Shown piece by piece: positions 44,522 to 64,000 of a stretch of DNA of 64,000 nt. How positions within the stretch are numbered: the stretch's first letter is position 1; the number at the start of each line of letters is the position of its first letter. The notes beneath the pieces were generated by a model. It was not told where the DNA came from, made no database searches, and saw nothing but the letters and a program-made list of their open reading frames with translations. Origin of the DNA: Eimeria praecox (taxonomy: Eukaryota). A program made the translations under genes and the position numbers. Location: assembly GCA_963920595.1 (NCBI GenBank), contig OY986949.1:744001-808000 (forward strand), in the 5' to 3' direction.

Positions 44522-46879
44522 TAGACCTGAAATCAGTCGAGGTTACCAGCTGAATTTGAGCACATTACTAAGCGGAAGAAAAGAAAATAACAATGATTCC
44601 CCTAGTAACGGCGAGTGAAGCGGGAAGAGCTCAAGGTGAAAACCGTGAGTCCCCGATTTGGCCTCACGAATTGTATCCTCTAGAGGCGTTGCCAGTGGGA
44701 AGGCAGGTCTAAGTTTCTTGGAACAGAACTTCAGAAAGGGTGACAGTCCCGTTCTTTGTCCTGCTCGGTGCTCCCCACGTACGGTGCGCTTTTATTGAGT
44801 CGCGTTCGTTGGGATTTGAGCGCAAAACGTGTGATAAGCTCCACATAAAGCTAAATATTGGCATGAGACCCATAGCGAACAAGTACTGAAAAGGAAAGAT
44901 GAAAAGGGCTTTGGAAAGAAAGTTAAAAGTGTCGAAGAGATTGAAAGCTTTTGTCCCTAGGGTGCCGGTGAGGTTCAGTACTTGTATCTCTTATATCTCC
45001 ATTATAGTGCTTGGGGGGTATATTTATTACTGTATTTCACTACGATTTCTTGAGGATGGTCAGCATCAGTGGACGCCCGACTATTGTCCCCAAGGAAGGT
45101 AAGCCTCCCCAACGAAGGTAGGCCCATCGTGGGCTGTTATAGCCTTTGGGTTTGTGGTGTTCAGGTGTTTGCAGAGGTGTATTTTCCCCGTGCGATGGGC
45201 ACACTTTTGAGTACCGTCGCTCTGCGATGCTGCCCTTAACAGTTCCAAACTACCCGTCTTGAAACATAGACCAAGGAGTCTAACGTATGTGCGCGTATGC
45301 GGGCGGAAGCCCTGTATGCACAATGAAAGTGAGAGTAGGGAGAGGTTTTGCTTTTTGCAGCCCTCCCATCTACGACCGACCATGAACTTTGGGAGAGGTT
45401 TGAGTTGTAGCACATCTGTTAGGACACGAAAGATGGTGAACTACGGCTGCGTAGGGTGAAGTCAGGCGAAAGACTGATGGAAGCTCGTAGCGATACTGAC
45501 GTGCAAATCGTTCGTCAAACTTGGGTATAGGGGCGAAAGACTAATCGAATCGTCTAGTAGCTGGTTTCTTCCGAAGTTTCTCTCAGGATAGCTGGAGTTC
45601 AATTAGTTTTATCAGGTAAAGCGAATGATTAGAGGCCTCGGGGGCGCGTTGCCCTTGACTTATTCTCAAACTTTAAATGGGTAAGATCCAGTGGTTACTT
45701 TATTGAACTGCTGGGGTTAATATGAACTCCAAGTGGGCCATTTTTGGTAAGCAGAACTGGCGATGAGGGATGCTCCTAACGCTTGGTTAAGGTGCCTAAA
45801 TACTCGCTCATCAGACACCATAAAAGGTGTTGGTTCATTTTGACAGCAGGACGGTGGTCATGGAAGTCGAAATCCGCTAAGAAGTGTGTAACAACTTACC
45901 TGCCGAATGAACCAGCCCTGAAAATGGATGGCAGTGCAGCGCGCCGATACCAGGCCATTATCGCAAGTTTTCAGCAGTGGACGTTGCGCGATGATGAGTA
46001 GGAAGACATGGGGATCGTAGCGAAGCATTCGGCGTGAGCCTGTGTGGAACGGTCTCTAGTGCAGATCTTGGTGGCAGTAGCAAATATTCAAATGAGAACT
46101 TTGAAGACTGAAGTGGAGAAGGGTTCCATGTGAACTGCAATTGGATATGGGTTAGCCGGTCCTGAGCAAAAACTTAATTGCGGGAAATTCGGGGTTGTAT
46201 TGTCCTCGTATTTTGCGAAAGGGAGTCAGGATAATATTCCTGAGCCAGGACGTGGATACTGCACGGCAACTTGAATGAACTCCTCGACGCAGGCGGGTGC
46301 CCCGGGAAGCGCTGTCTTTGCTTTTTAACAGCCACGTTATAAACATACCCTTGAATCAGAGTATCTGGAGATAGGGTTGACTGGTTGATAAAGCTTCCTG
46401 GCTTCCAGGGAGTGCGGTGTGCTTCTGATTGCCCTTGAAAAGAGGGGGGTAAGTTATTTACACCCTTGGCCTTACCATTAACCGCATCAGGTCTCCAAAG
46501 TTAGCAGCCGCTGGTCGATCGACGAAAGTAAATAAGGGAAGCCGGCAAAATGGATCCGTAACTTCGGGAAAAGGATTGGCTCTGAGTGCTCGGTGAATAG
46601 CGCCAGTGTCTTCATCGTCGGTCAGAGCTGCGCCGGCTCGTTTGTGCTGCGCGGCGCGTCTGCAGATCGCTGGTGCTGACTGCAATGTGACCACTGGTCT
46701 GCGTACACAGTGAGCAGCTAAATCAGAACTGGTGCGAACAAGTGGAATCCGACTGTTTAATTTAAACACAACATTTGCGCAAACGTTCCTAACGCAACGT
46801 GATTTCTGCTCAGTGTTGTGAATGTCAATGTGATGAAATTCTATCAAGCGCTGGTTAACGGCGGACGTAACTATGACGT
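44522..46879 (+). pseudogene. 28S rRNA 5' portion, degenerate, ending at the retrotransposon junction in helix 69
   Basis: Colinear with 60845-63211 but with substitutions in conserved stretches (ACCAGCTGAATTTGAGCACA vs ACCCGCTGAATTTAAGCATA), small deletions (~44935, ~46777) and a local duplication (~45088-45125). Confidence 0.9.
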
Positions 46880-63211: not shown

Positions 63212-64000
63212 GGAAATTTTAAGGAAAACCGGGTTTTGGAGGGGCAAGCTGCTTCCCCAGAAAATTATTTGCTAGGCATTCACTGAGGGAGCCCATACTC
63301 CTGCGGCACGCCCTTCTTTGTGAGAGCCAACCGCTTTCGCGCGTCTTAGAAAGTGCACATTATACGACCATGTAAGGTGTCCATATACTATATCATCAAC
63401 ATATCAAATCATGCAGATTTTGGAGCATTTCCACGAGATCGCCCGCCACTCCGAGGTCTTCTGTCTCCTCTATCGGCTACATGAAACCCCCAGATTTTTT
63501 GGCTAAGGCGAATACAGTCGGCACTAATTTCACGTTGCACAATCCATGCTGAACGTTCCGAGATTCCAAGTCTCTGCGTGAGTACCGTTCTGTTTTCTCG
63601 TGCAATGCAGCCAAGGGATCCATATACTAGTGCCTGTACTGTTACCCGATATCCTCGCGCTTCGTAATGCTTTTTGAGGCTTTGATATTTCTCTTCTTTT
63701 TGTAGACGGGCTGCTCCGAGGGAATTCTTCTTGTAGTCCTCGAAGACGACCGCCACATCTACTATTGCCAAGTCCTTGCGCTTGTCATCTCGAAGAATAA
63801 TATCAGGCCTTAACAGGGTTTCCATATCCTCAGGGCAGGCGTCGATTTGGAGCTTCTTGCCCCTATTCTTCGCGCTGCTCTTGATAGCTGTTGCAATCCT
63901 CTCCAACGCCTTGTTATGTCGGTCTTTGATCTTGCTATCCATATGATGAGGGCAGTGGTTGAGGACATGCGCTAGGGTTTCCGGGTCCTCTGTACAGTGG
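63211..64000 (-). mobile_element. RLE-type non-LTR retrotransposon copy 2 (3' end only; continues beyond the window), antisense in 28S
   Basis: Same junction as copy 1. ~197-nt 3' UTR homologous to 46879-47075, followed by an uninterrupted ORF tail. Confidence 0.95.
63409..63999 (-). CDS. C-terminal CCHC knuckle + PD-(D/E)xK restriction-like endonuclease of retrotransposon copy 2 (open to the window edge)
   Basis: HCTEDPETLAHVLNHCPHHMDSKIKDRHN…LRPDIILRD…IVDVAVVFED…KEEKYQSL…LVYGSLG, with no stops. Confidence 0.93.
   Translation of the reverse strand, partial: HCTEDPETLAHVLNHCPHHMDSKIKDRHNKALERIATAIKSSAKNRGKKLQIDACPEDMETLLRPDIILRDDKRKDLAIVDVAVVFEDYKKNSLGAARLQKEEKYQSLKKHYEARGYRVTVQALVYGSLGCIARENRTVLTQRLGISERSAWIVQREISADCIRLSQKIWGFHVADRGDRRPRSGGRSRGNAPKSA

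Follow-up and report, generated by a model that had tools for sequence, protein, structure and literature searches.

The ribosomal DNA (rDNA) described here raises the question of why two 28S rRNA genes of Eimeria praecox stop at the same base, and whether what follows them is a mobile element that selects this base. Both genes lie in a 64,000-nt stretch of DNA (GCA_963920595.1, OY986949.1 positions 744,001–808,000, forward strand; hereafter the window), the sequence of which is free of any N. To our knowledge, the Eimeria retrotransposons described to date are mostly decayed long terminal repeat (LTR) elements, and live elements of the kind reported below are thought to be missing from the phylum of Eimeria. 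The initial annotation of the window proposed a site-specific retrotransposon inserted antisense in 28S and belonging to a possibly active family. This proposal is supported as the best reading, with a subfamily that is probably active. At a probability of roughly 0.75, we consider the element to be a non-LTR retrotransposon of the NeSL/Utopia group with one open reading frame (ORF), which was inserted by targeting at one base of helix 69 and has a live subfamily.

The 28S junctions and the elements beyond them

Both 28S genes end on the same 20-base motif, which occurs exactly twice in the window, with its ends at 46879 and 63211. In alignments to Rfam, the break of both genes falls at model position 2271/2272, where the 3′ strand of the helix termed H69 in the initial annotation has run for four pairs, which confirms that the same base of helix 69 is concerned. 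The continuation expected from the Rfam consensus is missing beyond both breaks, and 28S is not resumed beyond the first element copy. As had been noted, each break is followed by the 3′ end of a minus-strand retrotransposon (copies 1 and 2, Table 1).

Table 1. Positions of rDNA, element copies and associated features in the window (RT stands for reverse transcriptase, RLE for restriction-like endonuclease, UTR for untranslated region, ITS for internal transcribed spacer and LSU for large subunit)
Feature	Position	Strand	Description
Orphan rDNA fragment	43475..46879	+	Last ~90 bases of 18S, ITS1, 5.8S (43994-44147), ITS2, 28S to junction
28S of orphan fragment	44546-46735, two pieces	+	Rfam
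Helix 69 stem-loop, orphan fragment	46863-46879	+	Rfam alignment
Element copy 1	46880..50671 (end approximate)	-	N-terminal zinc finger, RT, thumb, CCHC, RLE, 3′ UTR; 5′-truncated
Copy 1 3′ UTR	46880..47074	-	No poly(A); abuts 28S
Organelle-type LSU rRNA fragment, 74 bases	47261..47334	-	In copy 1 endonuclease region; bacterial LSU model, E 9.9e-14
Copy 1 RT catalytic YADD	48846-48857	-	Sequence
Copy 1 N-terminal zinc finger, single	50537..50614	-	Motif C-x2-C-x12-H-x8-C
Element copy 3	50641..51014	+	RLE C-terminus and full 3′ end; from a diverged subfamily; joined to copy 1 head to head
High-copy non-rDNA repeat, copy 3 target	51015..51700	.	Run contigs
18S, complete, copy-2 rDNA unit	58015..59810	+	Rfam
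5.8S, copy-2 unit	60250..60403	+	Rfam
28S, copy-2 unit	60846..63211	+	Rfam; cut inside 3′ strand of helix 69
Helix 69 stem-loop, copy-2 unit	63195-63211	+	Rfam alignment
Copy 2 3′ UTR	63212..63408	-	No poly(A); abuts 28S
Copy 2 open frame	63409..64000	-	End of CCHC knuckle and RLE; runs past window edge

The CCHC knuckle and the RHN, RPD and KY nuclease motifs are present in both copies, in agreement with the first description, which had also placed the RT motif in copy 1 only; it does not occur in the visible part of copy 2. Copy 1 spans residues 257–1458 of a full-length relative. It carries at least four frameshifts that are lacking in the dominant subfamily, together with four in-frame stops, and is dead. 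The visible ORF of copy 2 is intact as claimed, with 196 open codons (63409–63999), and this copy belongs with the dominant, multi-copy subfamily. The element end has no poly(A) tail, as had been noted, but the terminus given as AAATTT(T/C)CA should be shortened to AAATTT(T/C)C, since its last A is most likely that of the target. All three copies in the window, including copy 3 described below, terminate in this manner beside a target T. A predicted fold of the 3′ UTR across the three copies comprises 30 pairs, only two of them with a double change, and we base no claim on it.

Four of the 24 listed sequencing runs were compared with the window over positions 46810–51700; either of the runs X2 and X18 may be the source of the window itself. 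One X2 contig equals 46810–47292 across the copy-1 junction with 0 differences, and one X18 contig equals 50320–50698, also with 0 differences. In run X19, which comes from another study, a 2877-base contig (depth 2.7) has its start within 28S, approximately 30 bases in, and leads into an element of the copy-2 type. Run X21 contains a diverged relative, as 6662 of 6940 raw reads were less than 90% alike, and these reads, a sample of 2 in 100 from that run, were kept out of the flank analysis. The edges of rDNA arrays are prone to misassembly, and an assembly chimera or foreign contamination was therefore considered as the source of the junctions. A chimera is opposed by contigs of other runs, in which the copy-1 junction is crossed with no difference and the copy-2-type junction recurs, and the chimeric assembly that the initial annotation had named as a danger was not found at either. 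Contamination is opposed by the close protein matches with a species name, all of which are from Eimeria (six in one list and the named ones of a second), and by the flanks, which contain 14 TGCATGCA octamers compared to approximately one expected. An origin of this kind is extremely improbable.

The contigs of run X2 that are identical to copy 1 have a depth of 45–53, which is that of a single copy. Contigs 8–11% different from copy 1 have a depth of 2385–2976 (1896 near the 5′ part), and that of a 28S contig is 9500. These depths correspond to approximately 38–60 element copies and 190 28S copies, a ratio of 0.20–0.31 that derives from the contig depths of one run and is silent on where the copies lie. 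The dominant type has the letters of copy 2 where checked (two of two single positions and two of two loose ends) and is without the frameshifts of copy 1, its indels at 48943, 49200, 49504 and 50210 keeping the frame.

Helix 69 is near-invariant in the Rfam consensus; in the window, two adjacent pairs are altered on both sides with the pairing kept. The altered pairs appear to be the normal 28S of the host. An explanation of these letters as a 28S-derived element tail was rejected, because high-depth 28S contigs and reads have no listed difference there and the pairing is kept.

Divergence and the origin of the copies

Two copies at one base could also descend from one ancient insertion that was passively copied with its rDNA unit by recombination, with no present targeting. 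The units of copies 1 and 2 differ by 25% in ITS1, 31% in ITS2 and 3.9% in 5.8S, and their 28S genes differ by 7.6% in a patchy manner (0 to 25 differences per 150 columns). The 3′ UTRs differ by 20.5%, and a comparison of 195 codons gave a synonymous divergence (dS) of 0.25 and a nonsynonymous divergence (dN) of 0.09 (dN/dS 0.36; Fisher p 1.4e-4). The values for dS and the 3′ UTR, which are near those of the spacers, are what passive copying would leave, and copy 1 clearly lies in an orphaned unit. The similar neutral divergence of element and spacers indicates that copy 1 represents an old inserted unit, orphaned later. However, when 36 amino-acid differences were polarised with five full-length relatives, 27 were derived in copy 1, three in copy 2 and six were unclear, so that nearly all changes fall on the copy 1 branch. 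The frameshifts of copy 1 are absent from the dominant type, and a different subfamily (copy 3) is found in the same register at another locus. Passive copying is thus improbable. Equal divergence without synonymous bias had been named in the initial annotation as the mark of an ancient insertion duplicated with its unit; the divergence did prove roughly equal, but a synonymous bias is present, on the copy-2 lineage.

Judged from these substitutions, the copy 2 lineage is under purifying selection. The frame of a retrotransposon is kept under selection only through transposition, so a copy 2 lineage that remained functional after the split would have been re-inserted at the same base. The dN/dS of 0.36 and the multi-copy dominant subfamily without the frameshifts of copy 1 support the earlier suggestion that the family may be active.

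The orphan rDNA fragment is decayed, yet some of its patches are near-identical to the copy-2 unit. At 45556–45856, the orphan 28S differs from the copy-2 28S at two of 300 bases, compared to approximately 10% in conserved neighbours; this stretch was likely replaced by gene conversion from the rDNA array in recent times. A decayed Gypsy-like RT remnant (YLDD, 42900–43474) directly adjoins the fragment.

The rDNA beside copy 1 might instead be a 3.4-kb 3′ transduction through antisense read-through, in which case copy 1 would be no independent rDNA insertion. Such an event would fit the abrupt stop of the fragment in the 18S tail next to the Gypsy-like remnant, the failure of 28S to resume and the lack of a visible poly(A) signal in the element. 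A transduction of 3.4 kb would nevertheless be very long, the same picture would result if neighbouring elements had truncated the unit, and a parent resident in rDNA at this base would still be required. We consider this explanation very improbable.

Targeted insertion in 28S can be compared with the junction of copy 3, which the initial annotation had overlooked. The 3′ UTR of copy 3 differs by 38–39% from those of copies 1 and 2. The letters of the empty target site were obtained from loose ends before 51015 in paralogous copies of the repeat (45 contigs of X18 and four of X2). On the other strand, the empty site reads TCTTAAGGT followed by three bases and CAA, and the Rfam 28S after the junction reads TCTTAAGGT AGC CAA. 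The two agree at 12 of 15 bases, nine of them consecutive, in the same register and polarity (binomial 1.2e-5, for a motif picked after the data were seen).

An element of loose specificity, which uses short CTTAAG-type motifs genome-wide and has rDNA as one frequent landing place, would account for a copy 3 outside rDNA and for relatives on long contigs that are not of repeat size. Planarian LIN26 is likewise found in many unrelated repeats besides 28S, according to the sections consulted of PMC4640811. On the other hand, the site of copy 3 matches 28S beyond the hexamer, the low-depth, dominant-type contig of run X19 leaves 28S unbranched, and two of the three window copies are at one identical base. 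Loose specificity is therefore unlikely. As an off-target insertion, copy 3 speaks for recognition of sequence and against a specificity that is absolute, and the same off-target pattern is described for R1, R2, R4 and R5 in the part of PMC3849761 that was covered.

Copies 1 and 3 are fused head to head at 50641–50671, with both 5′ junctions lost. Twin priming was ruled out as the cause of this fusion, as the copies come from different subfamilies.

Relatives and classification of the family

The closest named protein is E. praecox EPH_0052370, which is 98% identical to copy 1. Ten close matches were looked up, and the six with names are from E. praecox, E. media, E. brunetti and E. mitis. In the second list, 10 of 13 matches are 53–82% identical, and E. 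necatrix and E. mitis are among them. The family includes five full-length open frames of 1380–1536 aa, in which the order is one zinc finger, RT, CCHC and RLE. A single N-terminal finger of the type C-x2-C-x12-H-x8-C occurs in six of six family proteins, and a Myb-like pattern in none of the six. Pfam Myb, RNase H and Ulp1 protease are absent from both full-length proteins scanned (P0001 and P0007). One full-length frame stands for a 24-member cluster, the 15 listed members of which differ by 1–9 residues; five of these 15 are on contigs of 4872–4874 bases, approximately one element length.

A scan of metagenome contigs yielded three of 47 candidate stretches, all distant (27–31%) and without RNA-family flanks. 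Relatives with DNA numbered 0 of 75 among viral contigs and 0 of 38 among prokaryote genomes. For the 28S motif, the viral and prokaryote collections gave 0 matches, and papers gave chance primer matches only. The closest relative outside the family, P0036 (1176 aa; 46% over RT), is sister to the Eimeria clade.

Quick RT trees were calculated with 73 rows picked from 204 with enough coverage, and with 36 rows. In the 73-row tree the family forms a clade with a support of 100 in the Shimodaira–Hasegawa-like approximate likelihood ratio test (SH-aLRT). It is joined by one sister sequence (96) and then by named oomycete and RNase-H-bearing proteins (89); in the 36-row tree, the join with the oomycete/RNase-H group has an SH-aLRT of 99. 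Five stand-ins for R2, picked after the first tree was seen, form a separate group, and their grouping with the family was rejected by the approximately unbiased (AU) test (p 3e-6). Two of the stand-ins matched solved R2 structures with 320 and 402 bits, compared to 236 for the family. The affinity to NeSL/Utopia that had been suggested from a thumb motif is likely, as the family nests with oomycete elements bearing RNase H and Ulp1, the clade label being taken from domain content.

The oomycete proteins, from Globisporangium and Lagenidium, are the nearest named relatives, and most of them have RNase H before RT. In the consulted sections of PMC4640811, this arrangement is the mark of oomycete Utopia, and Utopia is placed in the NeSL clade (sensu Kojima and Jurka, 2015). 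The Eimeria family shares with oomycete Utopia a single ORF that encodes RT and RLE along with an N-terminal and a C-terminal zinc finger. Utopia is recognised by one to three N-terminal zinc fingers and no Myb, and the family has one such finger and no Myb. In contrast to oomycete Utopia, P0001 and P0007 are without RNase H before RT. Utopia targets U2 small nuclear RNA, whereas none of the three window junctions is in U2 (two in 28S and one in a repeat).

The family also resembles R2 (R2Bm, R2Tg and R2Pm). RT, CCHC knuckle and RLE occur in one ORF, as required of the R2 group, and this part aligns to solved R2 with an E value of 5e-69. The 28S hot spot is the same, and both are multi-copy in proportion to rDNA. 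Unlike R2, which inserts in sense orientation, the Eimeria element is antisense, and its junction is 8 bases upstream of what we take to be the canonical R2 28S site. R2 has a Myb domain, which the family lacks, and R2 is defined by Myb and target (PMC13188248 and PMC13580325, as far as covered). According to the part of PMC5035012 available to us, R2 is so far known from animals alone.

R5 and LIN9, LIN24 and LIN26_SM of planarians, which belong to the NeSL clade, are likewise 28S-specific RLE elements, and their hosts are flatworms. For R5, work of Burke from 2003 reportedly places the insertion 8 bases upstream of that of R2, i.e., at this junction. R5 has two ORFs, compared to the one long ORF of the Eimeria family. 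In the covered text of PMC3849761, R5 is said to insert a few bases from the R2 site. The antisense insertion in 28S is real, as the initial annotation had it, but a precedent exists in planarians: the 3′ ends of LIN9, LIN24 and LIN26 are antisense in 28S at other positions, and also occur in other repeats (PMC4640811, S6 Fig, among the parts consulted). LIN24 and LIN26 insert approximately 80 bases further upstream and end there in T runs, whereas the Eimeria element has no poly(A). The tree contains no R5 or LIN sequence, and the resemblance may reflect common descent or convergence. We conclude that the family, which would work in the manner of R2 and R5, belongs neither to R2 nor to the Utopia elements that target U2; it is best placed in the NeSL/Utopia group, as a new variant from Eimeria with 28S as its target.

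The family had further been called possibly undescribed in its phylum. This may hold for the rDNA target, but R2-type long interspersed nuclear elements (LINEs) had already been flagged in Eimeria: the portion of PMC9141347 consulted lists 17 non-LTR elements from Eimeria that MGEScan assigned to LINE R2 and mentions three Repbase entries from Eimeria. Target site, orientation, tree and copy number are not given for these matches in that portion, and they very likely include the family described here. Within the parts covered, PMC4199364 reports only chromoviruses among Eimeria elements, PMC13188248 has 0 mentions of Eimeria, and PMC12659853, PMC11828913 and PMC3636483 contain nothing on the targets of Eimeria elements. 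A literature search outside Repbase found no paper that names rDNA as the target of an Eimeria element.

Proposed targeting mechanism and adjoining features

The 8 bases between the junction and the assumed R2 site are TCTTAAGG, the inner six of which, CTTAAG, are palindromic. The first nick of R2 presumably falls on the bottom strand, where these 8 bases end on the right. An antisense element that takes its primer from the top strand would necessarily nick at the left edge, and because the inner CTTAAG is palindromic, this nick would mirror the bottom-strand nick of R2 8 bases downstream. We propose that the element endonuclease nicks the top (sense) strand of 28S just before TCTTAAGG, and that the freed 3′-OH would prime cDNA synthesis on the tail-less 3′ end of the element (target-primed reverse transcription). 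In its own orientation the element would see nearly the site of R2, and a related nuclease that engages the palindrome from the other side would produce an antisense insertion 8 bases upstream. Extra specificity may come from the 28S bases downstream (upstream in the frame of the element), perhaps through the single zinc finger, and specificity would be strong but leaky. The young subfamily would have roughly 40–60 copies, in up to approximately one quarter of 28S genes. The antisense orientation excludes the simple co-transcription by RNA polymerase I that, together with a 5′ self-cleaving ribozyme, characterises R2, and transcription would have to start from an internal or a downstream antisense promoter. 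A more specific account, in which an active non-animal 28S retrotransposon related to oomycete Utopia switched independently to the R2/R5 hot spot, reads CTTAAG in mirror image and occupies at most one quarter of rDNA units, has about even odds in our view.

Several points weigh against a targeted and live 28S element. The junction evidence comprises three junctions and one contig of low depth (2.7), and one of the three window copies (copy 3) is outside rDNA, at a site read from paralogous repeat copies and not from its own pre-insertion allele. No 5′ junction is present among the window copies, and the post-junction 28S letters are those of the Rfam consensus, which may differ from Eimeria's own. 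The occupancy of one quarter is an upper bound, taken from contig depths of one run that point to approximately 50 dominant copies. The neutral divergence of the element is about that of the spacers. The five full-length frames are assigned to Eimeria by similarity alone, and the named Eimeria fragments are on contigs of 70–102 kb. The trees are without named rows for R5, LIN, NeSL-1, R4, CRE and HERO, and no RNA run with the window stretch is among the runs listed.

If targeting is true, the family would be a rare instance of ribosomal-gene targeting outside animals, and the same few 28S bases would have become a safe harbour on more than one occasion. The mirror-image geometry opens a long-standing question to tests, namely how RLE elements switch target and strand. 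Since eukaryotes share the conserved 28S target, it would be natural to compare an intact ORF with insertion tools based on R2. The family would also matter for counts of rDNA copies and for the use of rDNA as a marker in Eimeria.

The 74-base rRNA insert of copy 1, overlooked in the initial annotation, has 31% GC and does not occur in copy 2. It is likely of apicoplast origin, with the mitochondrion as the alternative. The repeat targeted by copy 3 has a summed contig depth several hundred times that of a single copy (run X2), and some of its copies have a short tandem duplication. The frame at 51088–51510 in this repeat has no Pfam match and low Atlas scores only. A bacterial promoter scan of the window was empty, which is irrelevant here. 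No tRNA genes were called in the window by ARAGORN; at 51710–51810 on the minus strand, there are two tRNA-half-like stretches with a T-loop type motif. The ITS1 of both units (60030–60180 and 43800–43930) contains runs of TGCATGCA palindromic repeats, which are much expanded in the copy-2 unit.

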